A stretch of DNA of 63,879 nt from Nemertoderma westbladi. Its lineage: Eukaryota; Animalia; Xenacoelomorpha. The notes beneath the pieces are model-generated. The model saw only the letters and a program-made list of their open reading frames with translations. It had not been told where the DNA came from and ran no database searches. The DNA lies in the NCBI GenBank assembly GCA_032718475.1, contig JAUCBJ010004795.1, positions 1 to 63,879 of the forward strand, in the 5' to 3' direction. Shown piece after piece: positions 4,601-63,395 of this stretch; positions within the stretch are counted from its first letter, which is position 1; each line of letters opens with the position of its first letter. The position numbers and the translations under genes are program-made.

Positions 4601-7600
4601 ATCGTTGTCTCGCTACTCACCCCAGCACACGGATCGTTGTCTCGTTACTCACCCCAGCACACGGATCGTTGTCTCGCTACTCACCCCAGCACACGGATCG
4701 TTGTCTCGCTACTCACCCCAGCACACGGATCGTTGTCTCGTTACTCACCCCAGCACACGGATCGTTGTCTCGCTACTCACCCCAGCACACGGATCGTTGT
4801 CTCGCTACTCACCCCATCACACTGATCGTTGTCTCGCTACTCACCCCAGCACACGGATCGTTGTCTCGCTACTCACCCCAGCACACGGATCGTTGTCTCG
4901 CTACTCACCCCATCACACTGATCGTTGTCTCGTTACTCACCCCAGCACACGGATCGTTGTCTCGCTACTCACCCCAGCACACGGATCGTTGTCTCGCTAC
5001 TCACCCCAGCACACGAATCGTTGTCTCGTTACTCACCCCAGCACACGGATCGTTGTCTCGTTACTCACCCCAGCACACGGATCGTTGTCTCGCTACTCAC
5101 CCCAGCACACGAATCGTTGTCTCGCTACTCACCCCAGCACACGGATCGTTGTCTCGTTACTCACCCCAGCACACGGATCGTTGTCTCGTTGTCGTTACTC
5201 ACCCCAGCACACGGATCGTTGTCTCGCTACTCACCCCAGCACACGGATCGTTGTCTCGCTACTCACCCCAGCACACTGATCGTTGTCTCGCTACTCACCC
5301 CAGCACACGAATCGTTGTCTCGTTACTCACCCCAGCACACGGATCGTTGTCTCGCTACTCACCCCAGCACACGAATCGTTGTCTCGCTACTCACCCCAGC
5401 ACACGGATCGTTGTCTCGCTACTCACCCCACGCTCACACTGATCGTTGTCTCGTTACTCACCCCAGCACACGGATCGTTGTCTCGCTACTCACCCCAGCA
5501 CACGGATCGTTGTCTCGCTACTCACCCCATCGCCATCACACTGATCGTTGTCTCGTTACTCACCCCAGCACACTGATCGTTGTCTCGCTACTCACCCCAG
5601 CACACTGATCGTTGTCTCGCTACTCACCCCAGCACACGAATCGTTGTCTCGTTACTCACCCCAGCACACGAATCGTTGTCTCGTTACTCACCCCAGCACA
5701 CGGATCGTTGTCTCGTTACTCACCCCAGCACACGAATCGTTGTCTCGCTACTCACCCCATCACACTGATCGTTGTCTCGTTACTCACCCCAGCACACGGA
5801 TCGTTGTCTCGCTACTCACCCCATCACACTGATCGTTGTCTCGTTACTCACCCCAGCACACGAATCGTTGTCTCGCTACTCACCCCAGCACACTGATCGT
5901 TGTCTCGTTACTCACCCCAGCACACGGATCGTTGTCTCGCTACTCACCCCATCACACTGATCGTTGTCTCGTTACTCACCCCAGCACACGGATCGTTGTC
6001 TCGCTACTCACCCCATCACACTGATCGTTGTCTCGTTACTCACCCCAGCACACGAATCGTTGTCTCGTTACTCACCCCAGCACACGAATCGTTGTCTCGT
6101 TACTCACCCCAGCACACGGATCGTTGTCTCGTTACTCACCCCAGCACACGAATCGTTGTCTCGCTACTCACCCCATCACACTGATCGTTGTCTCGTTACT
6201 CACCCCAGCACACGGATCGTTGTCTCGCTACTCACCCCATCACACTGATCGTTGTCTCGTTACTCACCCCAGCACACGGATCGTTGTCTCGCTACTCACC
6301 CCATCACACTGATCGTTGTCTCGTTACTCACCCCAGCACACGGATCGTTGTCTCGCTACTCACCCCAGCACACGAATCGTTGTCTCGTTACTCACCCCAG
6401 CACACGGATCGTTGTCTCGTTACTCACCCCAGCACACGAATCGTTGTCTCGCTACTCACCCCATCACACTGATCGTTGTCTCGTTACTCACCCCAGCACA
6501 CGGATCGTTGTCTCGCTACTCACCCCATCACACTGATCGTTGTCTCGTTACTCACCCCAGCACACGGATCGTTGTCTCGCTACTCACCCCATCACACTGA
6601 TCGTTGTCTCGTTACTCACCCCAGCACACGAATCGTTGTCTCGCTACTCACCCCAGCACACTGATCGTTGTCTCGCTACTCACCCCAGCACACGGATCGT
6701 TGTCTCGCTACTCACCCCAGCACACTGATCGTTGTCTCGCTACTCACCCCAGCACACGGATCGTTGTCTCGCTACTCACCCCAGCACACTGATCGTTGTC
6801 TCGCTACTCACCCCAGCACACGAATCGTTGTCTCGTTACTCACCCCAGCACACGAATCGTTGTCTCGTTACTCACCCCAGCACACGGATCGTTGTCTCGC
6901 TACTCACCCCAGCACACGAATCGTTGTCTCGCTACTCACCCCAGCACACGGATCGTTGTCTCGCTACTCACCCCAGCACACGGATCGTTGTCTCGCTACT
7001 CACCCCATCGCCATCACACTGATCGTTGTCTCGTTACTCACCCCAGCACACGGATCGTTGTCTCGCTACTCACCCCATCACACTGATCGTTGTCTCGTTA
7101 CTCACCCCAGCACACGGATCGTTGTCTCGCTACTCACCCCATCACACTGATCGTTGTCTCGATACTCACCCCAGCACACGAATCGTTGTCTCGCTACTCA
7201 CCCCAGCACACGGATCGTTGTCTCGCTACTCACCCCATCGCCATCACACTGATCGTTGTCTCGTTACTCACCCCAGCACACTGATCGTTGTCTCGCTACT
7301 CACCCCAGCACACTGATCGTTGCCTCGCTACTCACCCCAGCACACTGATCGTTGTCTCGCTACTCACCCCAGCACACGAATCGTTGTCTCGTTACTCACC
7401 CCAGCACACGAATCGTTGTCTCGTTACTCACCCCAGCACACGGATCGTTGTCTCGCTTACTCACCCCAGCACACGAATCGTTGTCTCGCTACTCACCCCA
7501 TCACACTGATCGTTGTCTCGTTACTCACCCCAGCACACGGATCGTTGTCTCGCTACTCACCCCATCACACTGATCGTTGTCTCGTTACTCACCCCAGCAC

Positions 7601-10600
7601 ACGAATCGTTGTCTCGCTACTCACCCCAGCACACTGATCGTTGTCTCGTTACTCACCCCAGCACACGGATCGTTGTCTCGCTACTCACCCCATCACACTG
7701 ATCGTTGTCTCGTTACTCACCCCAGCACACGGATCGTTGTCTCGCTACTCACCCCATCACACTGATCGTTGTCTCGTTACTCACCCCAGCACACGAATCG
7801 TTGTCTCGTTACTCACCCCAGCACACGAATCGTTGTCTCGTTACTCACCCCAGCACACGGATCGTTGTCTCGTTACTCACCCCAGCACACGAATCGTTGT
7901 CTCGCTACTCACCCCATCACACTGATCGTTGTCTCGTTACTCACCCCAGCACACGGATCGTTGTCTCGCTACTCACCCCATCACACTGATCGTTGTCTCG
8001 TTACTCACCCCAGCACACGGATCGTTGTCTCGCTACTCACCCCATCACACTGATCGTTGTCTCGTTACTCACCCCAGCACACGAATCGTTGTCTCGCTAC
8101 TCACCCCAGCACACTGATCGTTGTCTCGTTACTCACCCCAGCACACGGATCGTTGTCTCGCTACTCACCCCATCACACTGATCGTTGTCTCGTTACTCAC
8201 CCCAGCACACGGATCGTTGTCTCGCTACTCACCCCATCACACTGATCGTTGTCTCGTTACTCACCCCAGCACACGGATCGTTGTCTCGTTACTCACCCCA
8301 GCACACGAATCGTTGTCTCGTTACTCACCCCAGCACACGGATCGTTGTCTCGCTACTCACCCCAGCACACGAATCGTTGTCTCGCTACTCACCCCAGCAC
8401 ACGGATCGTTGTCTCGCTACTCACCCCAGCACACGGATCGTTGTCTCGCTACTCACCCCATCGCCATCACACTGATCGTTGTCTCGTTACTCACCCCAGC
8501 ACACGGATCGTTGTCTCGCTACTCACCCCATCACACTGATCGTTGTCTCGTTACTCACCCCAGCACACGGATCGTTGTCTCGTTACTCACCCCAGCACAC
8601 GGATCGTTGTCTCGCTACTCACCCCAGCACACGAATCGTTGTCTCGCTACTCACCCCAGCACACGGATCGTTGTCTCGCTACTCACCCCAGCACACGGAT
8701 CGTTGTCTCGCTACTCACCCCATCGCCATCACACTGATCGTTGTCTCGTTACTCACCCCAGCACACGGATCGTTGTCTCGCTACTCACCCCATCACACTG
8801 ATCGTTGTCTCGTTACTCACCCCAGCACACGGATCGTTGTCTCGCTACTCACCCCATCACACTGATCGTTGTCTCGTTACTCACCCCAGCACACGGATCG
8901 TTGTCTCGCTACTCACCCCAGCACACGGATCGTTGTCTCGCTACTCACCCCATCGCCATCACACTGATCGTTGTCTCGTTACTCACCCCAGCACACTGAT
9001 CGTTGTCTCGCTACTCACCCCAGCACACTGATCGTTGCCTCGCTACTCACCCCAGCACACTGATCGTTGTCTCGCTACTCACCCCAGCACACGAATCGTT
9101 GTCTCGTTACTCACCCCAGCACACGAATCGTTGTCTCGTTACTCACCCCAGCACACGGATCGTTGTCTCGTTATCGTTACTCACCCCAGCACACGAATCG
9201 TTGTCTCGCTACTCACCCCATCACACTGATCGTTGTCTCGTTACTCACCCCAGCACACGGATCGTTGTCTCGCTACTCACCCCATCACACTGATCGTTGT
9301 CTCGTTACTCACCCCAGCACACGAATCGTTGTCTCGCTACTCACCCCAGCACACTGATCGTTGTCTCGTTACTCACCCCAGCACACGGATCGTTGTCTCG
9401 CTACTCACCCCATCACACTGATCGTTGTCTCGTTACTCACCCCAGCACACGGATCGTTGTCTCGCTACTCACCCCATCACACTGATCGTTGTCTCGTTAC
9501 TCACCCCAGCACACGAATCGTTGTCTCGTTACTCACCCCAGCACACGAATCGTTGTCTCGTTACTCACCCCAGCACACGGATCGTTGTCTCGTTACTCAC
9601 CCCAGCACACGAATCGTTGTCTCGCTACTCACCCCATCACACTGATCGTTGTCTCGTTACTCACCCCAGCACACGGATCGTTGTCTCGCTACTCACCCCA
9701 TCACACTGATCGTTGTCTCGTTACTCACCCCAGCACACGGATCGTTGTCTCGCTACTCACCCCATCACACTGATCGTTGTCTCGTTACTCACCCCAGCAC
9801 ACGAATCGTTGTCTCGCTACTCACCCCAGCACACTGATCGTTGTCTCGTTACTCACCCCAGCACACGGATCGTTGTCTCGCTACTCACCCCATCACACTG
9901 ATCGTTGTCTCGTTACTCACCCCAGCACACGGATCGTTGTCTCGCTACTCACCCCATCACACTGATCGTTGTCTCGTTACTCACCCCAGCACACGAATCG
10001 TTGTCTCGTTACTCACCCCAGCACACGAATCGTTGTCTCGTTACTCACCCCAGCACACGGATCGTTGTCTCGCTACTCACCCCAGCACACGAATCGTTGT
10101 CTCGCTACTCACCCCAGCACACGGATCGTTGTCTCGCTACTCACCCCAGCACACGGATCGTTGTCTCGCTACTCACCCCATCGCCATCACACTGATCGTT
10201 GTCTCGTTACTCACCCCAGCACACGGATCGTTGTCTCGCTACTCACCCCATCACACTGATCGTTGTCTCGTTACTCACCCCAGCACACGGATCGTTGTCT
10301 CGCTACTCACCCCATCACACTGATCGTTGTCTCGCTACTCACCCCAGCACACGAATCGTTGTCTCGCTACTCACCCCAGCACACGGATCGTTGTCTCGCT
10401 ACTCACCCCATCGCCATCACACTGATCGTTGTCTCGTTACTCACCCCAGCACACTGATCGTTGTCTCGCTACTCACCCCAGCACACTGATCGTTGTCTCG
10501 CTACTCACCCCAGCACACGGATCGTTGTCTCGTTACTCACCCCAGCACACGGATCGTTGTCTCGCTACTCACCCCAGCACACGGATCGTTGTCTCGTTAC

Positions 10601-13600
10601 TCACCCCAGCACACGGATCGTTGTCTCGCTACTCACCCCAGCACACGGATCGTTGTCTCGTTACTCACCCCAGCACACGAATCGTTGTCTCGTTACTCAC
10701 CCCAGCACACGAATCGTTGTCTCGTTACTCACCCCAGCACACGGATCGTTGTCTCGTTACTCACCCCAGCACACGAATCGTTGTCTCGCTACTCACCCCA
10801 TCACACTGATCGTTGTCTCGTTACTCACCCCAGCACACGGATCGTTGTCTCGCTACTCACCCCATCACACTGATCGTTGTCTCGTTACTCACCCCAGCAC
10901 ACGGATCGTTGTCTCGCTACTCACCCCATCACACTGATCGTTGTCTCGCTACTCACCCCATCGCCATCACACTGATCGTTGTCTCGTTACTCACCCCAGC
11001 ACACTGATCGTTGTCTCGCTACTCACCCCAGCACACTGATCGTTGTCTCGCTACTCACCCCAGCACACGAATCGTTGTCTCGTTACTCACCCCAGCACAC
11101 GAATCGTTGTCTCGTTACTCACCCCAGCACACGGATCGTTGTCTCGTTACTCACCCCAGCACACGAATCGTTGTCTCGCTACTCACCCCATCACACTGAT
11201 CGTTGTCTCGTTACTCACCCCAGCACACGGATCGTTGTCTCGCTACTCACCCCATCACACTGATCGTTGTCTCGTTACTCACCCCAGCACACGGATCGTT
11301 GTCTCGCTACTCACCCCATCACACTGATCGTTGTCTCGTTACTCACCCCAGCACACGGATCGTTGTCTCGCTACTCACCCCATCACACTGATCGTTGTCT
11401 CGTTACTCACCCCAGCACACGGATCGTTGTCTCGCTACTCACCCCATCACACTGATCGTTGTCTCGTTACTCACCCCAGCACACGAATCGTTGTCTCGTT
11501 ACTCACCCCAGCACACGAATCGTTGTCTCGTTACTCACAGCACACGGATCGTTGTCTCGCTACTCACCCCATCACACTGATCGTTGTCTCGTTACTCACC
11601 CCAGCACACGGATCGTTGTCTCGCTACTCACCCCATCACACTGATCGTTGTCTCGTTACTCACCCCAGCACACGAATCGTTGTCTCGCTACTCACCCCAG
11701 CACACTGATCGTTGTCTCGTTACTCACCCCAGCACACGGATCGTTGTCTCGCTACTCACCCCATCACACTGATCGTTGTCTCGTTACTCACCCCAGCACA
11801 CGGATCGTTGTCTCGCTACTCACCCCATCACACTGATCGTTGTCTCGTTACTCACCCCAGCACACGGTTCGTTGTCTCGCTACTCACCCCAGCACACTGA
11901 TCGTTGTCTCGCTACTCACCCCAGCACACGGATCGTTGTCTCGCTACTCACCCCAGCACACGGATCGTTGTCTCGTTACTCACCCCAGCACACGGATCGT
12001 TGTCTCGCTACTCACCCCATCACACTGATCGTTGTCTCGTTACTCACCCCAGCACACGGATCGTTGTCTCGCTACTCACCCCAGCACACGGTTCGTTGTC
12101 TCGCTACTCACCCCAGCACACTGATCGTTGTTTCGCTACTCACCCCAGCACACGGATCGTTGTCTCGCTACTCACCCCAGCACACGGATCGTTGTCTCGT
12201 TACTCACCCCAGCACACGGATCGTTGTCTCGCTACTCACCCCATCACACTGATCGTTGTCTCGTTACTCACCCCAGCACACGGATCGTTGTCTCGCTACT
12301 CACCCCATCACACTGATCGTTGTCTCGTTACTCACCCCAGCACACGGATCGTTGTCTCACTACTCACCCCATCGCCATCACACTGATCGTTGTCTCGTTA
12401 CTCACCCCAGCACACGGATCGTTGTCTCGCTACTCACCCCAGCACACGGATCGTTGTCTCGTTACTCACCCCAGCACACGGATCGTTGTCTCGTTACTCA
12501 CCCCAGCACACGGATCGGTATCTCGTTACTCACCCCAGCACACGGATCGTTGTCTCGCTACTCACCCCAGCACACGGTTCGTTGTCTCGCTACTCACCCC
12601 AGCACACTGATCGTTGTTTCGCTACTCACCCCAGCACACGGATCGTTGTCTCGCTACTCACCCCAGCACACGGATCGTTGTCTCGTTACTCACCCCAGCA
12701 CACGAATCGTTGTCTCGCTACTCACCCCATCACACTGATCGTTGTCTCGCTACTCACCCCATCACACTGATCGTTGTCTCGCTACTCACCCCAGCACACG
12801 GATCGTTGTCTCGCTACTCACCCCAGCACACGAATCGTTGTCTCGTTACTCACCCCAGCACACGGATCGTTGACTCGCTACTCACCCCAGCACACGGATC
12901 GTTGTCTCGCTACTCACCCCAGCACACGAATCGTTGTCTCGCTACTCACCCCAGCACACGGATCGTTGTCTCGCTACTCACCCCAGCACACGGTTCGTTG
13001 TCTCGCTACTCACCCCAGCACACGAATCGTTGTCTCGCTACTCACCCCATCACACTGATCGTTGTCTCGTTACTCACCCCAGCACACGGATCGTTGTCTC
13101 GTTACTCACCCCAGCACACGGATCGTTGTCTCGTTACTCACCCCAGCACACGGATCGTTGTCTCGCTACTCACCCCAGCACACGGATCGTTGTCTCGCTA
13201 CTCACCCCATCACACTGATCGTTGTCTCGTTACTCACCCCAGCACACGGATCGTTGTCTCGTTACTCACCCCAGCACACGGATCGTTGTCTCGTTACTCA
13301 CCCCAGCACACGGATCGTTGTCTCGCTACTCACCCCAGCACACGGATCGTTGTCTCGTTACTCACCCCAGCACACGGATCGTTGTCTCGCTACTCACCCC
13401 AGCACACGGATCGTTGTCTCGTTACTCACCCCAGCACACGGATCGTTGTCTCGAAGGTCGATACTACCACATCGTTATCGAAGGAAACCTCGTTGATTAC
13501 TTTACGAACGGAGCTATCAAACCTATCGATGTCACCAATAACCGCGATAGTATCAAGAGAATCAATAAGAGTTAACGCAAACCTAAAATATTCAAACAGA

Positions 13601-16484: not shown

Positions 16485-16630
16485 CTTATTGTTTTCAAGG
16501 TTGAGCACATTGTTTGCATTGATATTGAATAAACTATCAACGGTATTGAATTCACCTTGTATTAACTCTCCTGCTTCTCTGAAGGGAAATTTATTCCGGG
16601 GAGCAGTAGCATGTCTGCCTAATTGTTGAT
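16485..16630 (-). other. Possible orphan exon (xQQLGRHATAPRNKFPFREAGELIQGEFNTVDSLFNINANNVLNLENNK)
   Basis: Pyrimidine-rich acceptor ttttgtttgtttatttcaattag, one open frame, and AAG|GTAGTAAGG donor options. No family recognised and no partner exons found. Confidence 0.3.
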
Positions 16631-41879: not shown

Positions 41880-42441
41880 TTATAACGTATCTTGGAATCC
41901 CTTTCCATCTTGAAATTGACGTCGATTATCAAAATCCGCATCATCAACGGGTTGTAAGACGGGCTGGTCGTCATCTACAGGTCCCTCACTGTCCGGCAAA
42001 TCGTCAGCAACATGTATCGAGTCCGCGGCATGATGCGCTGAGTCCGCGGCAATAACCGCGGCATTATGTGGAGAGTCATCAGTTTGATCTTGCTGCCAAT
42101 CAGTTGGATCTTCTAACTGTTGGTTCTGGGCCGGTAGAGCCTGGTGATTGGCTGGATCTAACTGTTGGTTCTGGGCCGGTAGAGCCTGGTGATTGGCTCC
42201 CATAAGTACATCAGGTTGCACGGGGCCCGGCCCTGCGCCGTGGGCCTGCGCTGCGTTGATTGGTTGTTGTATCTGGTTATCTCTTCCATCCACCGGGTCA
42301 TTCACATTTTGCAATGGCTTCTCTATCTGAACTCCCAGATTCTGTTTAACAACACCGTCTGCCTGGGCATCTTCACCGTGTTTCTGTTTAACAACACTGT
42401 CTGCTTGTTCGTCTCCAACGTTTTGCGAGTTACAAGTTAAC
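41880..42441 (-). CDS. GOLM2: GOLM-like terminal exon 5 (acidic, Gln/Asp-rich; internal ANHQALPAQNQQL duplication)
   Basis: Acceptor ttttcctttag at 42442; frame of ORF 41880..42518; TAA at 41880. Confidence 0.8.
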
Positions 42442-45400: not shown

Positions 45401-48400
45401 CCAAGACCGAATTCATGACCTTTAATGTTGATGGAAACTTGACAACCATTGATAATAATCAACTAATGAAGGTCGACGACTTCCAGTACCTTGGATCATG
45501 GATAGAGAGTAGCAAAAAGGACATAGAAGTTAGGAAAGCAAAGGCTTGGGTAGCTCTATCAAAAATGGATACCATCTGGAAATCAGATCTCTCCAGGCAC
45601 CTGAAGACTAAGTTCTTTCGAGCCACAGTGGAAAGTGTATTTTTATACGGGGGTGAGACCTGGACACTGACTAAATCATTTGAACAACGAATTGATGGTT
45701 GCTACACAGGACTACTAAGGGCAGCCCTAAACATCAGCTGGAGACAACACATGACAAACGCCGAGCTTTATGGTACAATACCACCTGTATCAACCACCCT
45801 CCGTTAACGCAGATTAAGATTCAGTGGGCACTGCTGGCGAAGTAAAGACGAGGTCATACCAGATCTACTTCTCTGGCAACCAACTCATGGAAAGCGTAGT
45901 CGTGGACGACCTGCCATAACATATATAGATCAACTTGAAAGGAATACTGAACTTGGGAGAAACGAAATTGCGACAACTATGGAGAATCGGGAAACCTGGA
46001 AGGATCTCATTTCCACTGTCCGAGTTCGCTCGACCTAGTAGTAGTAGTGCCTCCTTATAATTTGACAGATATTTAGAACTAACCTTAAATTGAAGGGAAG
46101 GTTTGAAAACTTTACCCTCAATTATCTCAAATAATTGACATAATCTTGAGAATGGCTTGTTGAAATTTCATAAAATTTGTACTGAAAGTTCCCTACCATA
46201 TAAGGTAACTTTTGATCTAGAATTAAGAAAATCTGATTGTAAGTTGTATAACTTTTTGTGAGAAAAAGGTCGTGTTTTTTTTCAAATTCCCGATTTTTGG
46301 AGTTTTTTTTCTCAAAAAAATGCCATATCTCCATAAGATATATAGTCAAGGGGTAACCATTTTATAGTATTACAATATCATGGAATATACAATTAAAAAG
46401 ACACACTTAGGGCACGTAGTGTTAGTGTTTTAGTGTTAGCACATGTTATATTAAGTAGTCTGGTCTAATTTTTAAGCAAACATTATGTTACACAAGTAAA
46501 TGAATTTTCTTATACCACAAACGAATTTAAATATCGATATAATTTGTTTATTTCAATCGGATACATTTTCGGGAATATCAATTTATCTCTTCGCTGATTA
46601 AATTCGGTACCATTCTATGAATGGCAAATGGAACCCCAGTAGCTAAAATACCATAAATTATTGTAATCGAATTTAGATAATTTTTTTTGTCAACCACCCA
46701 CGCCTCCCTAACAATAACTGTCAACCACCCACGCCTCCCTAACAATAACTTACAACTGAGTGTTGAGAAGGCTTATTTCGTGTCTCAAATCTTCCAGATT
46801 GCCCTGATTTTCGACTATTTCGTCTTCTAGTTTTCCCTTTTCCAGTCTATTCGCACGCAGCTGCTCCTCGTTAGAAGATCGCAATTTATCCTGGAAATTA
46901 AAAAAAATGATCTCCAATAAATAACAATTCGGGTATTGAACTTTATTACCAATTAAAAAGACTACAGCGGCGGTAACAAATGACCAATACTAATTTTAGT
47001 CCACGGCAGTGTGTGTATTGATTCCGCAGTTCGATGGAATGGGAGTGAGAGTGAGGATCGAGGCATCGACATGATCTTTGTTACCAGAAGACAGTACCAT
47101 GGACTCAAACTGTTCTGTAAAGAGGCCATTCATTACGGTGGTGGGGCGAGCTAAGAAAGTAAACCAACTTAGCTTACAGGTACCGCTATCTCAACCTGTG
47201 TGTCTGTCGATCCCAATATTTGAACCTTAATAGCTCTGCCAAACATCGATGAAATCTAACCACACTTGGTACACAAATAATCTATCAAAAGTTGAGAAAT
47301 TTTCCCGAAGTAGGATTTACGTGTTACGTATGGCCTACAAGAAATTAAAATAAAAGTAGTTAATGAGTTAATTATTGTCAATTGCGGTAAAAAAGGCCAT
47401 TTTCAACATGCCTTATAATGGAAATTAATTATTTTCTAACATTAAATTAAATTAACTAAACTTAAAAATTATACAGCTGAATCCCCATTCCATTATAGCT
47501 TATAATTAGTTCAAGTGCTTTACTTTAAAAATCCCACTTTCTATATGTAAATTGGTATGATTGCTGTTCTGAAAGCACTACTAACTGGCTGTAGGAACTA
47601 TGTGACTGGGGGTGGGGGAGGTTTCTATAGGACAGCCAGCGAAAATATCCAGACTAATTAAAGCTTGCTTATTCAATCGTAGGAAGAGATACAAAATTGT
47701 TTATCTCATAATAATAATTATAAAATTAATATTAACAAACATAATTTCATCAACAATTTCTCAACTGTTGGTCTTATTTATGCCAATTAACTAATTTTCA
47801 ACTCGACAGTTTTAAATCCGACAAAGTTATAAGCATGTTAAAATAGTAACGACAGCGACGACACTACACTATTAGTAATTATTGATCCACCCCCTAACAA
47901 ACAGTGTCAGTTCGCTAAGACTCCGCCAACTTCGAGGCTCGCTCCATACAAATGTGCTTCGCCACCGACGAATAACCAGCAGTAGCGAGTAAATAATTGT
48001 CATAATTTCATTGAAACAATAAACTTAAAAGGATCGATTTTTTAGATATTTATATCTATATTTTTTGTTTATATAGTCAGTCTGTTGGTGGACCGAATTG
48101 AAATAATAGAAAATTTAAAGATAAATTCCTAATAATAATAAAACTGTCTGAATGGCTAAATTTTACTTCTACCGGTAATATATTAAATTAGCAGTTAGTA
48201 GAACTAAAATTACTAAAATAAATTATCCAATGAAAGTCTAGTTTTATTTACTAAACATAATGATGGAACGTAGTAACGTAGACTGCCAGTGTCCTATCAC
48301 TAATTAATGATGGAAAGACTTACTTCTATCACTAAAATAGTTTTAGTACTAGACCTGCTATTTATATAATTTACTATTATCAAAAAAGAATAAAATAACG

Positions 48401-51400
48401 GAAAGGGAGCACTTCTTGTCACCATTTTCAATTGAAAAAATAATGTGGCAAACTGTCAGACGAGTTTCTAAATCAGTATTTGTAGCGCGGCTGAGGTACT
48501 CACGTATTGTGTTGCAGCTGAGGTACTCACGTATTGTAGTGCGGCTGAGGTACTCACGTATTGTGTTGCGGCTGAGGTACTCACGTATTGTGTTGCAGCT
48601 GAGGTACTCACGTATTGTAGTGCGGCTGAGGTACTCACGTATTGTAGTGCGGCTGAGGTACTCACGTATTGTAGTGCGGCTGAGGTACTCACGTATTGTA
48701 GTGCGGCTGAGGTACTCACGTATTGTAGTGCGGCTGAGGTACTCACGTATTGTAGTACTGCTGAGGTACTCACGTATTGTAGTGCGGCTGAGGTACTCAC
48801 GTATTGTGTTGCGGCTGAGGTACTCACGTATTGTAGTGCGGCTGAGGTACTCACGTATTGTGTTGCGGCTGAGGTACTCACGTATTGTGTTGCAGCTGAG
48901 GTACTCACGTATTGTAGTGCGGCTGAGGTACTCACGTATTGTAGTGCGGCTGAGGTACTCACGTATTGTAGTGCGGCTGAGGTACTCACGTATTGTAGTA
49001 CTGCTGAGGTACTCACGTATTGTGTTGCGGCTGAGGTACTCACGTATTGTAGTGCGGCTGAGGTACTCACGTATTGTGTTGCGGATGAGGTACTCACGTA
49101 TTGTAGTGCGGCTGAGGTACTCACGTATTGTAGTGCGGCTGAGGTACTCACGTATTGTGTTGCGGATGAGGTACTCACGTATTGTAGTGCGGCTGAGGTA
49201 CTCACGTATTGTAGTACTGCTGAGGTACTCACGTATTGTAGTGCGGCTGACCTACTCACGTATTGTGTTGCGGCTGAGGTATTTACGTATTGTAGTGTGG
49301 CTGAGGTACTCACGTATTGTAGTACTGCTGAGGTACTCACGTATTGTAGTACTGCTGAGGTACTCACGTATTGTGTTGCGGCTGAGGTACTCACGTATTG
49401 TAGCGCGGCTGAGGTACTCACGTATTGTAGTGCGACTGAGGTACTCACGTATTGTAGTACTGCTGAGGTACTCACGTATTGTAGTGCGACTGAGGTACTC
49501 ACGTATTGTGTTGCGGCTGAGGTACTCACGTATTGTAGCGCGGCTGAGGTACTCACGTATTGTAGTGCGACTGAGGTACTCACGTATTGTAGTGCGGCTG
49601 AGGTACTCACGTATTGTGTTGCGGCTGAGGTACTCACGTATTGTGTTGCGGCTGAGGTATTTACGTATTGTAGTGCGGCTGAGGTACTCACGTATTGTAG
49701 TGCGGCTGAGGTACTCACGTATTGTAGTGCGGCTGAGGTACTCACGTATTGTGTTGCGGCTGAGGTGAGGTACTCACGTATTGTGTTGCGGCTGAGGTAC
49801 TCACGTATTGTGTTGCGGCTGAGGTACTCACGTATTGTAGTGCGGCTGAGGTACTCACGTATTGTGTTGCAGCTAAGGTACTCACGTATTGTAGTGCGGC
49901 TGAGGTACTCACGTATTGTAGTGCGGCTGAGGTACTCACGTATTGTAGTGCGGCTGAGGTACTCACGTATTGTGTTGCGGCTGAGGTACTCATGTATTGT
50001 AGTGCGGCTGAGGTACTCACGTATTGTGTTGCAGCTGAGGTACTCACGTATTGTAGTGCGGCTGAGGTACTCACGTATTGTGTTGCAGCTGAGGTACTCA
50101 CGTATTGTAGTGCGGCTGAGGTACTCACGTATTGAGTTGCGGCTGAGGTACTCACGTATTGTAGTGCGGCTGCGGTACTCACGTATTGAGTTGCGGCTGA
50201 GGTACTCACGTATTGTGTTGCGGCTGGGGTACTCACGTATTGTAGTGCGGCTGAGGTACACACGTATTGTAGTGCGACTGAGGTACTCACGTATTGTGTT
50301 GCGGCCGAGGTACTCACGTATTGTAGTGCGGCTGAGGTACTCACGTATTGTAGTGCGGCTGAGGTACTCACGTATTGTAGTACTGCTGCGGTACTCACGT
50401 ATTGTAGTCAGTGCGGCTGAGGTACTCACGTATTGTAGTGCGGCTGAGGTACTCACGTATTGTAGTGCGGTTGACCTACTCACGTATTGTGTTGCGGCTG
50501 AGGTACTCACGTATTGTGTTGCAGCTGAGGTACTCACGTATTGTAGTGCGGTTGAGGTACTCACGTATTGTAGTGCGGCTGAGGTACTCACGTATTGTAG
50601 TGCGGCTGAGGTACTCATGTATTGTAGTGCGGCTGAGGTACTCACGTATTGTAGTGCGGCTGAGGTACTCACGTATTGTAGTGCGACTGAGGTACTCACG
50701 TATTGTGTTGCGGCTGAGGTACTCACGTATTGTAGTGCGGCTGAGGTACTCACGTATTGTAGTGCGACTGAGGTACTCACGTATTGTAGTGCGGCTGAGG
50801 TACTCACGTATTGTAGTGCGACTGAGGTACTCACGTATTGTGTTGCGGCTGTGGTACTCACGTATTGTAGTGCGGCTGAGGTACTCACGTATTGTAGTGC
50901 GGCTGAGGTACTCACGTATTGTAGTGCGACTGAGGTACTCACGTATTGTGTTGCGGCTGAGGTACTCACGTATTGTAGTGCGGATGAGGTACTCACGTAT
51001 TGTAGTGCGACTGAGGTACTCACGTATTGTAGTGCGGCTGAGGTACTCACGTATTGTAGTGCGACTGAGGTACTCACGTATTGTAGTGCGACTGAGGTAC
51101 TCACGTATTGTGTTGCGACTGAGGTACTCACGTATTGTAGTGCGGCTGAGGTACTCACGTATTGTGTTGCGGCTGAGGTACTCACGTATTGTGTTGCGGC
51201 TGAGGTACTCACGTATTGTAGTGCGGCTGAGGTACTCACGTATTGTAGTGCGACTGAGGTACTCACGTATTGTAGTGCGGCTGAGGTACTCACGTATTGT
51301 AGTGCGGCTGAGGTACTCACGTATTGTAGTGCGGCTGAGGTACTCACGTATTGTAGTGCGGCTGAGGTACTCACGTATTGTAGTGCGGCTGAGGTACTCA

Positions 51401-54400
51401 CGTATTGTAGTGCGGCTGAGGTACTCACGTATTGTAGTGCGGCTGAGGTACTCACGTATTGTAGTGCGACTGAGGTACTCACGTATTGTGTTGCGGCTGA
51501 GGTACTCACGTATTGTAGTGCGGCTGAGGTACTCACGTATTGTAGTGCGACTGAAGTACTCACGTATTGTGTTGCGGCTGAGGTACTCACGTATTGTAGT
51601 GCGGCTGAGGTACTCACGTATTGTAGTGCGACTGAGGTACTCACGTATTGTAGTGCGGCTGAGGTACTCACGTATTGTAGTGCGGCTGAGGTACTCACGT
51701 ATTGTAGTGCAACTGAGGTACTCACGTATTGTGTTGCGGCTGAGGTACTCACGTATTGTAGTGCGGCTGAGGTACTCACGTATTGTAGTGCGGATGAGGT
51801 ACTCACGTATTGTAGTGCGGCTGAGGTACTCACGTATTGTAGTGCGACTGAGGTACTCACGTATTGTGTTGCGGCTGAGGTACTCACGTATTGTAGTGCG
51901 GCTGAGGTACTCACGTATTGTAGTGCGACTGAGGTACTCACGTATTGTAGTGCGGCTGAGGTACTCACGTATTGTAGTGCGGCTGAGGTACTCACGTATT
52001 GTAGTGCGACTGAGGTACTCACGTATTGTGTTGCGGCTGAGGTACTCACGTATTGTAGTGCGGCTGAGGTACTCACGTATTGTAGTGCGACTGAGGTACT
52101 CACGTATTGTGTTGCGGCTGAGGTACTCACGTATTGTAGTGCGGCTGAGGTACTCACGTATTGTAGTGCGGCTGAGGTACTCACGTATTGTAGTGCGGCT
52201 GAGGTACTCACGTATTGTGTTGCGGCTGAGGTACTCACGTATTGTAGTGCGACTGAGGTACTCACGTATTGTAGTGCGACTGAGGTACTCACGTATTGTG
52301 TTGCGGCTGAGGTACTCACGTATTGTAGTGTGGCTGAGGTACTCACGTATTGTGTTGCGGCTGAGGTACTCACGTATTGTAGTGCGACTGAGGTACTCAC
52401 GTATTGTGTTGCGGCTGAGGTACTCACGTATTGTAGTGCGACTGAGGTACTCACGTATTGTGTTGCGGCTGAGGTACTCACGTATTGTAGTGCGACTGAG
52501 GTACTCACGTATTGTAGTACTGCTGAGGTACTCACGTATTGAGTTGCGGCTGAGGTACTCACGTATTGTAGTGCGACTGAGGTACTCACGTATTGTAGTG
52601 CGACTGAGGTACTCACGTATTGTAGTGCGGATGAGGTACTCACGTATTGTAGTGCGGCTGAGGTACTCACGTATTGTAGTGCGACTGAGGTACTCACGTA
52701 TTGTGTTGCGGCTGAGGTACTCACGTATTGTAGTGCGGCTGAGGTACTCACGTATTGTAGTGCGACTGAGGTACTCACGTATTGTAGTGCGGCTGAGGTA
52801 CTCACGTATTGTAGTGCGGCTGAGGTACTCACGTATTGTAGTGCGACTGAGGTACTCACGTATTGTGTTGCGGCTGAGGTACTCACGTATTGTAGTGCGG
52901 CTGAGGTACTCACGTATTGTAGTGCGACTGAGGTACTCACGTATTGTGTTGCGGCTGAGGTACTCACGTATTGTAGTGCGGCTGAGGTACTCACGTATTG
53001 TAGTGCGGCTGAGGTACTCACGTATTGTAGTGCGACTGAGGTACTCACGTATTGTGTTGCGGCTGAGGTACTCACGTATTGTAGTGCGGCTGAGGTACTC
53101 ACGTATTGTAGTGCGGCTGAGGTACTCACGTATTGTAGTGCGGCTGAGGTACTCACGTATTGTGTTGCGGATGAGGAACTCACGTATTGTAGTGCGACTG
53201 AGGTACTCACGTATTGTAGTGCGACTGAGGTACTCACGTATTGTGTTGCGGCTGAGGTACTCACGTATTGTAGTGTGGCTGAGGTACTCACGTATTGTGT
53301 TGCGGCTGAGGTACTCACGTATTGTAGTGCGACTGAGGTACTCACGTATTGTAGTGCGGCTGAGGTACTCACGTATTGTAGTGCGGCTGAGGTACTCACG
53401 TATTGTAGTGCGACTGAGGTACTCACGTATTGTGTTGCGGCTGAGGTACTCACGTATTGTAGTGTGGCTGAGGTACTCACGTATTGTGTTGCGGCTGAGG
53501 TACTCACGTATTGTAGTGCGGCTGAGGTACTCACGTATTGTAGTGCGACTGAGGTACTCACGTATTGTGTTGCGGCTGAGGTACTCACGTATTGTAGTGC
53601 GGCTGAGGTACTCACGTATTGCGTTGCGGCTGAGGTACTCACGTATTGTAGTGCGACTGAGGTACTCACGTATTGTGTTGCGGCTGAGGTACTCACGTAT
53701 TGTAGTGTGGCTGAGGTACTCACGTATTGTGTTGCGGCTGAGGTACTCACGTATTGTAGTGCGACTGAGGTACTCACGTATTGTAGTGCGGCTGAGGTAC
53801 TCACGTATTGTAGTGTGGCTGAGGTACTCACGTATTGTGTTGCGGCTGAGGTACTCACGTATTGTAGTGCGACTGAGGTACTCACGTATTGTAGTGCGGC
53901 TGAGGTACTCACGTATTGTAGTGCGACTGAGGTACTCACGTATTGTGTTGCGGCTGAGGTACTCACGTATTGTAGTGTGGCTGAGGTACTCACGTATTGT
54001 GTTGCGGCTGAGGTACTCACGTATTGTAGTGCGACTGAGGTACTCACGTATTGTAGTGCGGCTGAGGTACTCACGTATTGTAGTGCGGCTGAGGTACTCA
54101 CGTATTGTAGTGCGACTGAGGTACTCACGTATTGTGTTGCGGCTGAGGTACTCACGTATTGTAGTGTGGCTGAGGTACTCATGTATTGTGTTGCGGCTGA
54201 GGTACTCACGTATTGTAGTGCGGCTGAGGTACTCACGTTTTGTAGTGCGACTGAGGTACTCACGTATTGTGTTGCGGCTGAGGTACTCACGTATTGTAGT
54301 GCGGCTGAGGTACTCACGTATTGTAGTGCGACTGAGGTACTCACGTATTGTAGTGCGACTGAGGTACTCACGTATTGTGTTGCGGCTGAGGTACTCACGT

Positions 54401-57400
54401 ATTGTAGTGCGACTGAGGTACTCACGTATTGTGTTGCGGCTGAGGTACTCACGTATTGTAGTGCGACTGAGGTACTCACGTATTGTGTTGCGGCTGAGGT
54501 ACTCACGTATTGTAGTGCGACTGAGGTACTCACGTATTGTAGTACTGCTGAGGTACTCACGTATTGAGTTGCGGCTGAGGTACTCACGTATTGTGTTGCG
54601 GCTGAGGTACTCACGTATTGTAGTGCGACTGAGGTACTCACGTATTGTGTTGCGGCTGAGGTACTCACGTATTGTAGTGCGGCTGAGGTACTCACGTATT
54701 GTGTTGCGGCTGAGGTACTCACGTATTGTAGTGCGACTGAGGTACTCACGTATTGTGTTGCGGCTGAGGTACTCACGTATTGTAGTGCGACTGAGGTACT
54801 CACGTATTGTAGTGCGACTGAGGTACTCACGTATTGTAGTGCGACTGAGGTACTCACGTATTGTAGTGCGACTGAGGTACTCACGTATTGTAGTGCGACT
54901 GAGGTACTCACGTATTGTGTTGCGGCTGAGGTACTCACGTATTGTAGTGCGACTGAGGTACTCACGTATTGTAGTGCGACTGAGGTACTCACGTATTGTA
55001 GTGCGACTGAGGTACTCACGTATTGTGTTGCGGCTGAGGTACTCACGTATTGTAGTGCGGCTGAGGTACTCACGTATTGTAGTGCGGCTGAGGTACTCAC
55101 GTATTGTAGTGCGGCTGAGGTACTCACGTATTGTAGTGCGGCTGAGGTACTCACGTATTGTAGTGCGGCTGAGGTACTCACGTATTGATCTTGACATCGA
55201 AGTAAGTCGGACTGCGCAAGTTTTTCTTTATTTTCAATTTCCTCCTTTTCATGGAGATTGGCAGCCACTTGGCCATCTAGTAGCCCTGAAATAAAAGAAA
55301 ATATAAGTATTATATTCCGGTAGATAAATCTAACTTTATACAACAAATCAAACAGCTTAGCTCTCTCTATACCAATTAATATAAATAAATATCTACGACC
55401 TACTTCTGTACGTCTAACCCAGATTCACACCCCACGGTACTACCCGTGGCACCCCACCGTACGGTACTACAGGTATTAATTAAGGCACACCTGCTCGCTT
55501 TTTAGATTTCTCCAATTCATCTTTCAACGATTCAACCTCCTTAGTAATTTGCTCTACTCGGTAAAGCAGATCAGTATTTCTTTCCTCAAGAACACGTTTG
55601 TTAGAGACATTATCTTCTACCTGTAACAGAAGCGCTGTCAGACAGTTAGGCCCGTGGAAAATATAATTTGGGCCTACGTACAAATTTTAAATAAATTATG
55701 ACCAGTGCCGGATAGCTGGATTAAGGATTTTTGCAGCGGCCTGTAGCTTTCTCAAGGTTGCTGAATAAATGATGCCAAAAACTCTTCACTGTGCTTGAGG
55801 TCAACATACCACCCACCAGGCACGCAGGAGGGTGACACCGCGCCGCGACCACGTGACCCAGACCCACGACATAACGTGAGACGTCGGTCTCTTGACTGCT
55901 TGATGTTTGACGCGTAGGGGTAGGGTTAACTCTTAAAATTCCGGACACCATGGTCAAATTACGGACAAATTTAAATTTCATTGGTACAAACTATAGAATT
56001 AATATCTGAATTTGTACAATAGCCTATAGACTTTGATCACTGATGACTTAGAGGTACGGTCAGAATCACTAGAGGGAGCCCAAAGGCCCCTTTGCCAATT
56101 GGAGCAGGTTGTTTCTAGTGTCTGGTCTTTTTGTAAATTCCAAGAAGACCAAAATAATCACAGTCAACCTAGACAGTACTGCAGTACCAGTACTGCAGTA
56201 CTCTTATGGGAGTCCATGCTGAGCTCTACTGCTCTAACTGCTGAGGATACCAAATATGGTACTTTCACAAGAATGCTGCGCCGGGTTCATTGTTTCAAGT
56301 CCAATGAACACATCTCGAATCCTCTAATCAGACTCTATACAAAATTGGATGTGTTCCATTAATCTACCCTAGCTTGACTCTTGGGCGGAGCCGCCTCCGC
56401 TTTGCAGGACTGCATAGACCGATTCCAGATTCAAGCATCACCAAATTTTCAAAAGTTGCTAGCTGTTGATTGCCTATTGCATAAATTGTTTGCTTATTAT
56501 TATTACCAATAAAGGCTCGCCAAGCCTACTTGTCTATCTTTTGTGATACCGGTATGTCTAAACAGTACTTTATATAAGCCAGCAGAACCTGGAACGCTTT
56601 AGGCATAACTACAGAACTATATATATAATATATATTCCAGTAGGTGTATCATATATATTATAGGCAGTACTTATTACGATGGCTCTGGGTTATAATCGCA
56701 AGACACAGGTTAAATTCTATAAATCGTTAAATAGACAATTTGGGAGAGGAGCCCCATCGATAATTGATCCAAACATTGAGAAATATGTTGTATCGACTCT
56801 GATATATATTGGTAATTGTGGTTGGCCACTAACTGACAAAACCGAGACCAACTAATCCACATCATAAGAAATGCGTCTGGTGATATTTCCAATCGATGTA
56901 ATGTCTGCCAACAACCATAGCACTACTGTAGTAACTCTAGAACAACTTTGTTTAATTTATAATAGTTTCAATTATCAGCGCAATATCCTATGCAGTGTAA
57001 TCTGTTACTATTTTCTAAAAGATATTTTAGTTATTTTAGAATAATACTGTATACAAATTAATTGTTGTATTCTATATATATAGTCCAATAGTCAAGTCCG
57101 TCTCGCAGTGTATATTTGATAGTCTGATAGTAGTATCAGAGCCATATCATATACATTTAGTGGGCCTATAATTTTGTTATTATTGTATACCAATTATTAT
57201 CATAAAGCAATGCAGTTAGTTCATTTAAACAAAAATATTTTAAATAACACGGGTGGTGGGTGAGACGGGAGGGGCAACTGCTAACTGTTCGCAAATTCCA
57301 TCTTGGTGAATGAATATTTCGCTGCAATGTTAAATTCTCAATTTAGGGAAATGCGAAATAACGGTAAACACGAATGAGCAGATTATAGTGACACGTATTT

Positions 57401-58195
57401 CTAACCAAAACAATAAATGGAACACGATAGAACAGTTATAGTTATAGTTTTATTTATGGGAGTAATCGAACTGTTATTTGAGTCGAATTTCATGGAGAGG
57501 GATGCATTATTATTGCGTTGAAAGTCCCCCCAACCCCTATCCCGCCCATGTGAAGAATACCAGGATTTCAGAACTGAGTACAGGAGTAAAAGATGGCTGT
57601 ACTGCTGTATGTAATACACCCGGATACCTAAACTAATGGAAATAAAGTTTGATTTAATTATTAAAATAGGCCTAATATCAACTCTCACATCAAATAAAAG
57701 GCATTGTCCGGAATTATATACATGTCCGGTATTTTACCAGGTAGTCAAATTCCGGACAGTCAATTTATAAAATGAAAACCACCCAGTTACAACTAAACAG
57801 TTGAACTGAGTGGTATCAATTTGGTTTTATAGTGAACTACAATAGCATCTTGTACAGATGCAAACATAATATCAAGAATTAAAGCAATTTAAAGTGTCCC
57901 AAATTTAAAAAAAAATAAAATTTTGTCCGGAATTTGAATAGTCAACCCAAGGCCTATTAATTTCAAATGCTGGACCGGTCCACAAGTTGCAAGTATATAA
58001 ATCTTTTCAGAATTTATAGAACTTTTAGAGTTTTAAACTCACCTGCCTGTTAAGTAAAGTAACTTGTTTCTGATAATCAACCTTGGTAAGCCAGTATTGC
58101 ACTCCAGCGAATATTATGATAATAATTAAACCAGCTACAACGATACTGGGACAGCGACCGCGGTGTAACACTTTAAAAGTTGTGTCCGATGTCAT
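41880..58195 (-). CDS. GOLM2: GOLM1/GOLM2(CASC4)-like type II Golgi membrane protein; exons 58195-58043, 55620-55491, 55285-55182, 46890-46754, 42441-41880 (361 codons if the TAG at 46828-46830 is ignored)
   Basis: Short cytosolic tail ending RGRCPS, TM segment IVVAGLIIIIIFAGVQYW, coiled coil containing LEERNTDLL (cf. remembered CASC4 LEKRNSDLL), acidic low-complexity tail ending FQDTL. GT-AG introns with phases 0,1,0,2 all join in frame. Confidence 0.78.
43538..46048 (+). mobile_element. Decayed RTE-clade LINE (APE endonuclease + RT), antisense in GOLM intron 4, with (TAG)4 tail
   Basis: EN motifs IATMNARTL, IICIQEHR, GGVGILL, CYSPTN, GDLNAQIG. RT motifs NYRGICLL, QNGFR, FVDFKKAFDS, GVLQGDTLAP, with FADD at 45288-45299 in a shifted frame. 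RLRFSGHCWR..GRP C-terminus; stop at 45805; tagtagtagtag at 46036. The 5' boundary is approximate. Confidence 0.92.
46688..46750. repeat. 31-bp two-copy tandem duplication overlapping the GOLM exon 4 donor
   Basis: tgtcaaccacccacgcctccctaacaataac twice, ending inside acttac (46748-46753). Confidence 0.9.
46754..46890 (-). CDS. GOLM2: GOLM-like exon 4 (DKLRSSNEEQLRANRLEREN*KTKIVENQGNLEDLRHEISLLNTQ), with in-frame TAG
   Basis: Acceptor tttccag at 46891, donor GTAAGT at 46753; phase 0/2 fits both neighbours; coiled-coil-like sequence. Confidence 0.7.
47141..47946. mobile_element. Degenerate/composite non-autonomous element bounded by GTGGGGCGAGC..GCTCGCTCCA
   Basis: Left part resembles 797..950; right part resembles 41107..41273. 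Confidence 0.65.
48481..55187 (-). repeat. 27-bp tandem array (248 donor positions) made of the GOLM exon 3 3' end plus its 5' splice donor
   Basis: Minus-strand unit CAATAC|GTGAGTACCTCAGCCGCACTA. First donor 55181, last 48503; the distance 6678 equals 247x27+9. Confidence 0.97.
55182..55285 (-). CDS. GOLM2: GOLM-like exon 3 (GLLDGQVAANLHEKEEIENKEKLAQSDLLRCQDQY)
   Basis: Acceptor ttttatttcag at 55286, first GTGAGT at 55181; 104 nt, phase 1/0. Confidence 0.82.
55491..55620 (-). CDS. GOLM2: GOLM-like exon 2 (VEDNVSNKRVLEERNTDLLYRVEQITKEVESLKDELEKSKKRA)
   Basis: Acceptor ttctgttacag at 55621, donor AG|GTGTGC at 55490; 130 nt, phase 0/1. Confidence 0.82.
58043..58195 (-). CDS. GOLM2: GOLM-like exon 1 (cytosolic tail + TM, 51 aa)
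   Basis: ATG at 58195, CAG|GTGAGT donor at 58042. Absent from the ORF track because it is under 60 aa. Confidence 0.85.
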
Positions 58196-62765: not shown

Positions 62766-63395
62766 AATAGGGTTGGTGCGCCAAAAAATTGTTGGGCTAG
62801 AAACAATCGAGTAAGGGGTAACAAGGTGCCCTGAATCGAGTGGCGGGGTGTGTTTTTTGTAAAAACACGAGGAAACGGTCGAAATTGCGGGTTTAAGTAA
62901 GCCCGGGAAGCCAATTTTGAATATCGGCTGTGACTGGATGCTACATAATTGACGTCATTTACGCAGTGATCTGATAATTTCTTATCTTGGTTTATATGGA
63001 GTGATTTCTCATCGATTGAAATGCACATTAAATCTCATCAATTTACACGTGGTTTATATCAATTGAAAGCGGAGAGTCTTGCGCGTCTTTTGACACTACA
63101 ATTAATTAAATTCATGGTGATGAACATTGATAATATGCTGCTCACAAGAGTAAACTCGGCAGATTGCCTGACCGGAAATTATCAGATCACTTTGTAGTGG
63201 CATCAAATCTGTAGCAGTCAATCACAGCCGATTTTCAAAATTGGCTTCCCGGGCTTACCTAAACCCACCATTTCGACTGTTTCCTCGTGTTTTTACAAAA
63301 AACACACCTCGACACTCGATCCAGGGCACCTTGTAAACCTTTATTTATATTCAATTGTTTCCAGACCAACAATTTTTTCGCGCACCAACCCTATT
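62766..63395. mobile_element. MITE with ~175-bp imperfect TIRs (TAGGGTTG..CAACCCTA termini, possibly hAT-derived)
   Basis: aatagggttggtgcg..gcccgggaagccaattttgaa..cggctgtga..gctac is mirrored at 63211..63395. The TSD is not clean. Confidence 0.85.

Follow-up and report, generated by a model that had tools for sequence, protein, structure and literature searches.

In the 63,879-nt contig of Nemertoderma westbladi analysed here (JAUCBJ010004795.1; the whole stretch is referred to as the window), we found that the 5' splice site of one intron is repeated in tandem 248 times. The array extends over positions 48480..55187 of the minus strand and was scored by TRF with 248.1 copies and 92% matches. 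Its 27-nt unit, read on the minus strand, joins the terminal 6 nt of exon 3 of the host gene to the initial 21 nt of intron 3, and donor positions run from donor 1 at 55181 to donor 248 at 48503. The array is real, its count is correct and it lies far beyond chance. It belongs to the exon/intron-junction minisatellites of the amphioxus mirage or F7 type, because the unit spans the exon 3/intron 3 boundary and the donor is repeated unchanged, as GTGAGT, in 242 of 248 positions. It most probably arose by slippage and would be spliced out almost whole, with donor 1 dominant and a possible leak at donors 2-3. The array makes up 6.7 kb (81%) of the 8,291-nt intron 3, which it has enlarged from ~1.6 kb to 8.3 kb. 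The six altered donors read ATGAGT (3), GTAAAT (2) and GTGTGT (1), and one further unit is changed at position -3. Regarding the phase, donors 1-177 and 202-248 (n=47) are in phase 0 and donors 178-201 (n=24) are shifted by +1, the shifts coming from two indels, +4 in unit 177 and +5 in unit 201. The 24 shifted donors (49746..50398, minus strand) would yield frameshifted products; an in-frame product would result from each of the 220 donors that are intact and in phase. Our recount is identical to the initial annotation, which had listed 248 donor positions, 224 in phase 0 (177 + 47) and 24 shifted, with a few mutated donors and in-frame products from the array.

The array contains 32 unit types with a clear polarity, the three commonest accounting for 109/124 units in the exon-proximal half and 83/123 in the distal half (P 1e-4), and one block of 15 units is present twice in identical copies. 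Block duplication and a more uniform exon-proximal half are both found, as in minisatellite-type turnover, and unit types, polarity and block structure together make an assembly artefact unlikely. The last copy (48476..48503, minus strand) is, by the mechanism proposed here, probably where the intron originally began; at +22..+28 it reads CAAATAC, which closely resembles the exon end CAATAC. We infer that this near-match of 6-7 nt seeded a duplication that included the donor. Block duplications, whose pattern is visible in the array, would then have enlarged it, the latest of them at the exon-proximal end. Five such arrays occupy 59% of the window. A reading of the units as recursive splice sites or micro-exons was rejected, as the unit has an internal CAG but without the pyrimidine tract of the eight real acceptors, and no AG is found before the donor.

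The five exons of the host gene are all open with canonical splice sites, and donor 1 is intact. In the gene model the coding part of exon 1 (58043..58195; all exons on the minus strand) specifies a short cytosolic tail and one transmembrane segment (residues 18-36; the best 19-mer scores 2.48 in hydropathy, all others ≤1.6), exon 2 (55491..55620) is coiled-coil-like with sub-threshold leucine-zipper matches only, and exon 3 (55182..55285, 104 nt) ends in phase 0 with its last 6 nt inside the repeat unit. The coiled coil continues in exon 4 (46754..46890, 137 nt), which has an intact acceptor with a long pyrimidine tract, and the coding part of exon 5 (41880..42441) leads up to the stop with an acidic, Gln/Pro-rich tail; the C-terminal tail measures 185 aa (D+E 18%, K+R 4%, P 8%, Q 15%). 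LIVM residues fill a fraction of 0.70 of the heptad a/d positions in residues 60-94, further heptads lie at 150-176, and the predicted luminal coil covers about residues 40-176 (~140 aa). Splicing at donor 1 joins exon 3 to exon 4 and gives, as a model, a type II membrane protein of 361 aa. Short N-terminal tail, one transmembrane segment, luminal coiled coil and disordered acidic tail match the GOLM1/GOLM2/GPP130-type architecture; the gene likely encodes a Golgi membrane protein, which we take to resemble GOLM2. The designation "Golgi protein gene" in the initial annotation is compatible with the architecture, but the family was not confirmed in database searches. Pfam returned only sub-threshold transmembrane and zipper matches for the five single exons, word searches at E ≤ 10 gave no relative for exon 2 (19 candidates) or exon 1 (7 candidates), and the family queries, single exons of 43-51 aa, recovered none. 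A search of protein representatives with exon 1 produced one match, a protein of 915 aa that aligned in seven stretches (E 8e-4), the PDB search with host exons generic coiled coils only, and a metagenome scan for the exon 3 end no exact match. The three human proteins GOLM1, GOLM2 and GPP130 are themselves described as sharing this architecture without sequence homology; their coils measure 164-210 aa, compared with the predicted ~140 aa here (PMC13752275). A Beclin-1 gene neighbours the host gene. Its best matches are animal proteins at about 53%, and in a tree of the query with 50 of the 120 listed matches it sits on a long branch (1.91) with no firm placement, so that only 'animal' is claimed; a metagenome scan for Beclin-1 gave 66 pattern matches, none of them confirmed.

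A second junction-spanning minisatellite lies 35 kb away from the first. TRF places it at 4165..13453 (minus strand), with a 32-nt unit and 288 donors, every one an intact GTGAGT. The exon before it (13430..13582, minus strand) matches Glyco_hydro_47 positions 34-84 (E 5.1e-11) and the exon after it (3905..4058, minus strand) positions 87-126 (E 5.8e-05), consecutive stretches of the same domain. All three exons scanned match PF01532, two of them above the curated cut-off, and the gene also matches the EDEM1 structure (E 2.3e-4); by these similarities it is a GH47/EDEM-type mannosidase gene. In the exon frame, donor 1 is directly followed by a stop codon, and this out-of-frame array is, as had been suggested, a useful control. 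If the EDEM-type gene works, donor 1 must therefore beat the 287 others, since later donors would meet the stop, and in this animal the first among hundreds of identical donors is probably the one chosen. The control carries a constraint that is absent from the 27-nt array; a working EDEM-type gene would show first-donor choice to be possible, not that it is forced in the host gene.

Donor use in the 27-nt array can be judged from this control together with published cases. The intron 2 minisatellite of human 6-16 (IFI6) likewise has a unit spanning the donor and many identical pseudo-sites; its 25 pseudo-sites come with RNA evidence for the use of two proximal ones, compared with 247 pseudo-sites known from sequence here (PMC1557585). 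The 37-bp VNTR in human F7 IVS7, CBS IVS13, LMNB2 and PDGFA resemble our array in a first unit that spans the exon/intron boundary, made of a few exon bases and the intron start, and in identical downstream donors. They differ in being mammalian with 5-20 copies, as opposed to 248 copies over 81% of the intron here, and the length of the F7 unit is not divisible by three, whereas the frame of our array is open (PMC1557585). According to this source F7, LMNB2 and PDGFA use the first donor only, 6-16 and CBS use two donors besides the first, and 50 F7 constructs showed upstream-first selection, in donor-scanning experiments with 5-9 copies in mammalian cells (PMC1557585). The amphioxus mirages (Adh3, BflGb6/BflGb9, troponin C, PGBD5) are invertebrate junction repeats found in several genes per genome, with concerted evolution and splicing reported as unaffected; they have 3-6 copies, compared with 248 and 288 here, two arrays in one 64-kb window (PMC3087553, PMC3902484). 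The 27-nt array is about ten times longer than the published junction minisatellites compared, and literature searches, which covered few subscription papers, yielded no description of donor arrays with hundreds of copies.

By analogy with these cases and the control array, the spliceosome would commit to the most upstream donor and join exon 3 to exon 4. Leak at donors 2-3 is possible; at a low level it may add 9 or 18 residues, and such products would escape decay because they are in frame. In human 6-16 the two extra donors add residues in frame. By donor 9 exon 3 would be longer than 300 nt, compared with 104-154 nt for internal exons in our gene models. A point against first-donor splicing of the array is that repeats at exon boundaries are reported to be frequently retained in exons as well among young human paralogs (PMC2812944). 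The initial annotation had proposed a splice-donor ladder that generates isoforms of graded length. A short leak has precedents in 6-16 and CBS (PMC1557585), but a graded ladder over hundreds of donors is made unlikely, as published cases use the first one to three donors and the control array speaks for choice of the first. Splicing is probably confined to the first one or two donors, which makes a giant mucin-like protein unlikely.

We consider it unlikely that donors 1 to about 8 serve as a short functional ladder, used at appreciable and perhaps regulated levels, in which 9-residue steps within the luminal coil would alter stalk length and with it the cisternal position of the protein. Donors 2-8 are in frame and would give an exon 3 of 131-293 nt, and two extra donors are in use in 6-16 and CBS, as cited above. 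For human cells, localisation to the cisternal rim is reported with coiled coils of 157 aa and to the interior with those of 104-106 aa, and the predicted coil of ~140 aa falls in between (PMC13752275). However, nine residues are not a heptad multiple, and a heptad-register test across the junction gave 0.45-0.50 for 0-7 inserted units and did not separate insert numbers. No coding signal sets the first units apart (the array was tested as a whole), selection in F7 is upstream-first (PMC1557585), and the family assignment of the host gene is tentative.

Another reading, to which we give little credence, attributes the maintenance or amplification of the arrays to the donor motif itself and not to the protein, either as repeated U1 sites along a swollen intron that shield or mark the RNA or through amplification linked to spliceosome binding. 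Both units vary least at donor positions -3..+6, which hold 5 of 26 distinct alleles on 9 of 27 sites in the 27-nt unit (P 0.09) and 0 of 12 on 9 of 32 sites in the EDEM-type unit (P 0.019; both arrays combined, P 0.013). After manual merging of linked changes and inclusion of indels, the counts become 4/22 and 1/19 (combined P 0.011). This conservation test is post hoc, however, and relies on a small number of alleles that share descent. The intact donors of the control (288/288) fit such maintenance, as does the presence of GTNAG in most minus-strand and almost no plus-strand copies of the five large arrays; in the three other arrays, though, GTNAG is expected since they are G/T-rich on that strand (shuffle P 0.16, 0.32 and 0.30 for GTNAG; P 0.02, 0.12 and 0.37 for the best U1 score). 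No exon adjoining these three was found within the window, and the 27-nt array offers U1 no polyadenylation signal to suppress (0 AATAAA/ATTAAA in 6,702 nt).

The exon 3 frame has no stop across the whole 27-nt array, as the initial annotation stated, and the read-through product has 2,366 aa (129 + 2,237 repeat-array residues), closed by a stop at 48468..48470 (minus strand). The repeat peptide given there, VSTS(A/V)A(L/T)QY, applies to the phase-0 units but not to the shifted block, where read-through gives about 220 residues of an unrelated, Arg-rich REYLSRTTI-type repeat. The unit variants carry no signal of coding selection. The 26 distinct substitutions among 245 regular units comprise 9 silent and 17 replacement changes and no stop, compared with 7.0-8.1 silent changes expected (P(≥9) 0.22-0.40; P(no stop) 0.14-0.17); 246/276 copy-weighted differences replace a residue, and both indels are non-3n. 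Among possible junction duplications of 15-60 nt at nine donors of the 64-kb window, 1,527 of 12,213 (12.5%) are 3n and stop-free. At the exon 3 donor the share is 27%, and 78% of the 3n ones are stop-free. An unrelated 20-nt satellite in the window has one frame with 0 stops in 5,505 codons. The 27% base rate and this satellite mean that an open frame needs no function, and here it probably results by chance from a 27-nt unit located at a donor of phase 0. The two indels sum to +9 and avoid the one closed frame, with a chance of ~0.44 (two of three frames open); jointly with the chance of no stops (~0.15) this gives ~0.07, which speaks mildly in favour of translation.

It is highly improbable that an extended ladder or complete read-through yields a type II membrane protein whose newborn mucin-like domain comprises up to 2,237 Ser/Thr-rich repeat residues. 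The frame is open from end to end with phase restored by the two indels, and Ser+Thr make up 36.3%, above the 20% threshold for mucin PTS domains (Ser+Thr ≥20%, Pro ≥5%), with which, as with mucin-related repeats, it also shares the long tandem repeat (PMC2515642). Unlike PTS domains, however, the predicted repeat is nearly devoid of proline (1 of 2,237 residues; 0 of 2,138 100-aa windows reach 5%) and net hydrophobic (GRAVY +0.29). With the stretch of Arg-rich repeat and no sign of coding selection, the newborn mucin-like domain of the initial annotation is not supported. The first AATAAA past the stop (48243..48248, minus strand) lies 220 nt after it, which would suit read-through, but the signal is equally frequent in other introns (2 in 1,577 nt there; 1 in 2,422, 1 in 704 and 1 in 1,059 nt elsewhere). 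A stop upstream of an exon-exon junction has the layout of nonsense-mediated decay, and without that poly(A) site the read-through stop would precede the exon 4/5 junction. The AATAAA is also 255 nt from the last donor, within the 500-1,000 nt over which U1 is reported to suppress polyadenylation (PMC5499120), and the use of distal donors would imply an internal exon as long as 6,782 nt. An AlphaFold2 beta-rich, solenoid-like model of the VSTS repeat (two folds, pLDDT 79.5 and 85.1), for which a PDB structure search found no match at E ≤ 0.001, was dismissed as evidence because AlphaFold2 yields beta-solenoid-like models for perfect repeats of random sequence (PMC11795689). A weak match of this frame to Med31 (E 3e-5, 0 stretches, under the cut-off) was regarded as a repeat artefact.

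That the array has crippled the gene or allele through exon 3 skipping or silencing, leaving no ladder and little normal product, is equally hard to credit: exon skipping in F7 did rise once upstream donors were inactivated (PMC1557585) and the intron has grown several-fold, but donor 1, the five exons and their splice sites are intact.

With 248 and 288 identical donors in neighbouring genes, the first-donor reading makes this region an extreme natural test of 5' splice-site choice. Leak products of the in-frame 27-nt array would survive, and those of the out-of-frame EDEM-type array should be destroyed. Because nonsense-mediated decay would not hide them, the products of the in-frame array could reveal how donor use declines with distance in an animal only remotely related to mammals. 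The locus is also a warning for annotation, where gene prediction may report a 2,366-aa 'mucin'. We see only a slim chance of a working length dial at the proximal donors, with 9-residue steps crossing the ~160-aa length between rim and interior, combined with arrays that form a possibly genome-wide class maintained for the donor motif. If true, the dial would be a junction minisatellite recruited as a splice-controlled ruler for the luminal stalk (~140 aa), and a regulated ladder would be a new means to tune protein length and place in the Golgi.

The host gene of the 27-nt array lies on the minus strand and is modelled with five exons (58195-58043, 55620-55491, 55285-55182, 46890-46754 and 42441-41880), direct splicing of which gives a product of 361 aa. 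This product carries an N-terminal tail of 17 residues, a single transmembrane segment (18-36) and heptad-rich stretches up to about residue 176, followed by an acidic tail. We presume it to be a Golgi protein, a label that rests on this architecture and on general likeness, since searches with single exons as queries gave no confirmation of the family. The same layout of N-terminal tail, one transmembrane segment, coiled coil and acidic tail is described for GOLM1, GOLM2 and GPP130 in the account of PMC13752275. Exon 5 contains a true coding repeat, an in-frame duplication of 45 nt at 42112-42198 (15 residues, twice). An exact 31-nt duplication at 46688-46750 begins a few bases past the exon 4 donor, which it excludes, and may represent an incipient array of two copies. 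Intron 4 holds a broken element with endonuclease and reverse-transcriptase-like frames on the plus strand (43499-46050), which from the look of its sequence we take to be LINE-like.

The 27-nt array (48480-55187, minus strand, 248.1 copies) begins at the end of exon 3, and each unit comprises 6 exon bases and 21 intron bases. The initial annotation had described 248 donor positions with a few mutated copies, and we found GTGAGT intact in 242 of them; the phases it gave were likewise recovered, with donors 1-177 and 202-248 in phase and donors 178-201 shifted. The stop-free read-through frame of more than 2200 repeat residues was also confirmed, the exon 3 frame staying open through the array up to a stop at 48470 (2,366 aa in total). 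Splicing from donors 2, 3, 177 and 248 would leave the normal C-terminus in place and is predicted to yield 370, 379, 1,945 and 2,587 aa; the shifted donors would give truncated products. With donors 2-8 exon 3 stays below 300 nt.

The last copy merges into unique intron sequence and carries CAAATAC at +22 to +28, a near match to the exon end CAATAC; slippage between the two would produce exactly the 27-nt unit. The three commonest unit types make up 109 of 124 exon-proximal units versus 83 of 123 distal ones (P 1e-4), one block of 15 units has a second copy, and the two indels are both distal. This uniformity near the exon, together with the repeated block and the distal indels, is consistent with recent expansion on the exon side through block duplication.

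Minisatellites at exon/intron junctions are a known kind, and the novelty here is copy number. PMC1557585 lists F7, LMNB2, PDGFA, 6-16 (the human IFI6) and CBS as human minisatellites whose first unit spans the donor. According to that source F7 (5-9 copies), LMNB2 and PDGFA use the first donor only, 6-16 (25 pseudo-sites) and CBS (15-20) use two proximal sites besides the first, and mutagenesis of F7 favours upstream-first scanning. The amphioxus 'mirages', the invertebrate counterpart, are reported to leave splicing unaffected (PMC3087553, PMC3902484). The two junction arrays of the window differ from published ones in scale, with 248 and 288 copies, and a literature search found no donor arrays of this size.

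The second junction array (4165-13453) belongs to a GH47/EDEM-type gene, and its 32-nt unit combines 24 nt of exon with 8 nt of intron; all 288 donors are intact. It had been put forward as an out-of-frame control, which holds, as in the exon frame the first codon past the donor is a stop. The exons on both sides match profile positions 34-84 and 87-126, and a working enzyme therefore depends on the choice of donor 1 among 288. The spliceosome of the animal thus appears to pick the donor lying furthest upstream, which is no proof that donor 1 is used in the in-frame array, as leakage is less costly there. The earlier interpretation stands in part: in-phase donors of the 27-nt array would yield in-frame products and the EDEM-type array is a useful control, but first-donor precedent speaks against a ladder of isoforms of graded length and the near absence of proline against a mucin.

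The open frame itself is not very special. Among possible junction duplications of 15-60 nt at nine donors of the window, 1,527 of 12,213 are both a multiple of three and stop-free (27% at the host exon 3 donor), and by arithmetic from 12.5% the chance that one of the two junction arrays is open is about a quarter. A nearby 20-nt satellite likewise has a frame open over 5,505 codons, and the 27-nt array read in antisense stays open for 1,353 and 1,593 codons. The 26 distinct substitutions among 245 regular units comprise 9 silent changes (7.0-8.1 expected from random draws, P 0.22-0.40), 17 replacements and none to stop, as happens in 14-17% of random trials; weighted by copy, 246 of 276 unit differences alter the residue. 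Neither indel is a multiple of three, and about 220 residues become an Arg-rich repeat. Survival of the frame, at ~0.15 for the substitutions times ~0.44 for two indels avoiding the one closed frame (near 0.07), is no more than a mild point in favour of translation. The donor window (-3 to +6) is the least variable part of the units of both arrays, with 5 of 26 distinct alleles in the 27-nt array and 0 of 12 in the control array (combined P 0.013). Counted as events, the figures are 4 of 22 and 1 of 19 (P 0.011); both comparisons are post hoc and draw on a small number of related alleles. If real, this concerns the donor motif rather than the protein, because the out-of-frame array shows it too. 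GTNAG also occurs on the same strand in three other arrays of the window, which is largely explained by composition.

The proposed mucin-like domain is Ser/Thr-rich as claimed (36.3%, against a mucin threshold of 20% in PMC2515642), but has one proline in 2,237 residues, reaches 5% proline in 0 of 2,138 windows of 100 residues and is net hydrophobic (GRAVY +0.29); in the terms of that source it is at most 'mucin-related'. A read-through mRNA would need a poly(A) site downstream of 48468. AATAAA is present at 48248, 255 nt beyond the last donor; hexamers of this type are equally common in other introns, and U1 is described as suppressing cleavage over a range that includes 255 nt (PMC5499120). 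An AlphaFold2 model of the repeat was confident and beta-rich, and comparison with the PDB gave no match; such models are an artefact described for perfect repeats (PMC11795689), and this one was discounted. For human cells, PMC13752275 reports that proteins with a 157-aa luminal coiled coil localise to the rim of the cisterna, and those with one of 105 aa to its interior. The predicted coil of the host product has ~140 aa, and a few added 9-residue units could in principle carry it across this line if they stay helical, a reading that is very unlikely.

Five tandem arrays occupy 38,002 of the 63,879 bases of the window, whose DNA comes from an animal that has no close relative among database sequences. 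An intronless Beclin-1 gene (61297-62532, plus strand, 412 aa) lies ~3 kb from the host gene in head-to-head orientation; its best relatives among the listed matches reach 53-57%, and in a tree with 50 of the 120 listed matches it forms a long branch without firm placement. A long inverted repeat beside its 3' end (62780-63390) looks MITE-like by eye. A 55-nt array (89 copies) and a 20-nt array (827 copies) adjoin with zero spacer (18090-39464, 21 kb together). Read on the minus strand, units of the 55-nt array contain a pyrimidine run that ends in CAG and resembles an acceptor, and those of the 20-nt array a donor-like AAG/GTAGAT; no adjoining exon was found, and their donor scores were not significant versus shuffles. 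The stop-free plus-strand frame across the 20-nt satellite (22929-39560, 5,543 codons) is taken as the chance outcome of a stop-free unit. The 17-nt array (1-630), in an intron of the EDEM-type gene and extending past the window edge, has GG/GTTAGT in its unit, the top donor score among non-junction arrays (shuffle P 0.02). An open stretch at 16485-16630 (minus strand), in the interval from the 55-nt array to the EDEM-type gene, resembles an exon and has both an acceptor and a donor; a Pfam scan of it gave no match. Hexamers of the TAGGCCTA type exceed expectation 6- to 7.5-fold in the unique portions of the window, where runs of poly-G and poly-C are also frequent.

The 27-nt array is probably a very large junction minisatellite that is spliced out from its first donor, with slight leakage possible. 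Besides its size, the pairing of an in-frame with an out-of-frame array offers a ready test of donor choice.
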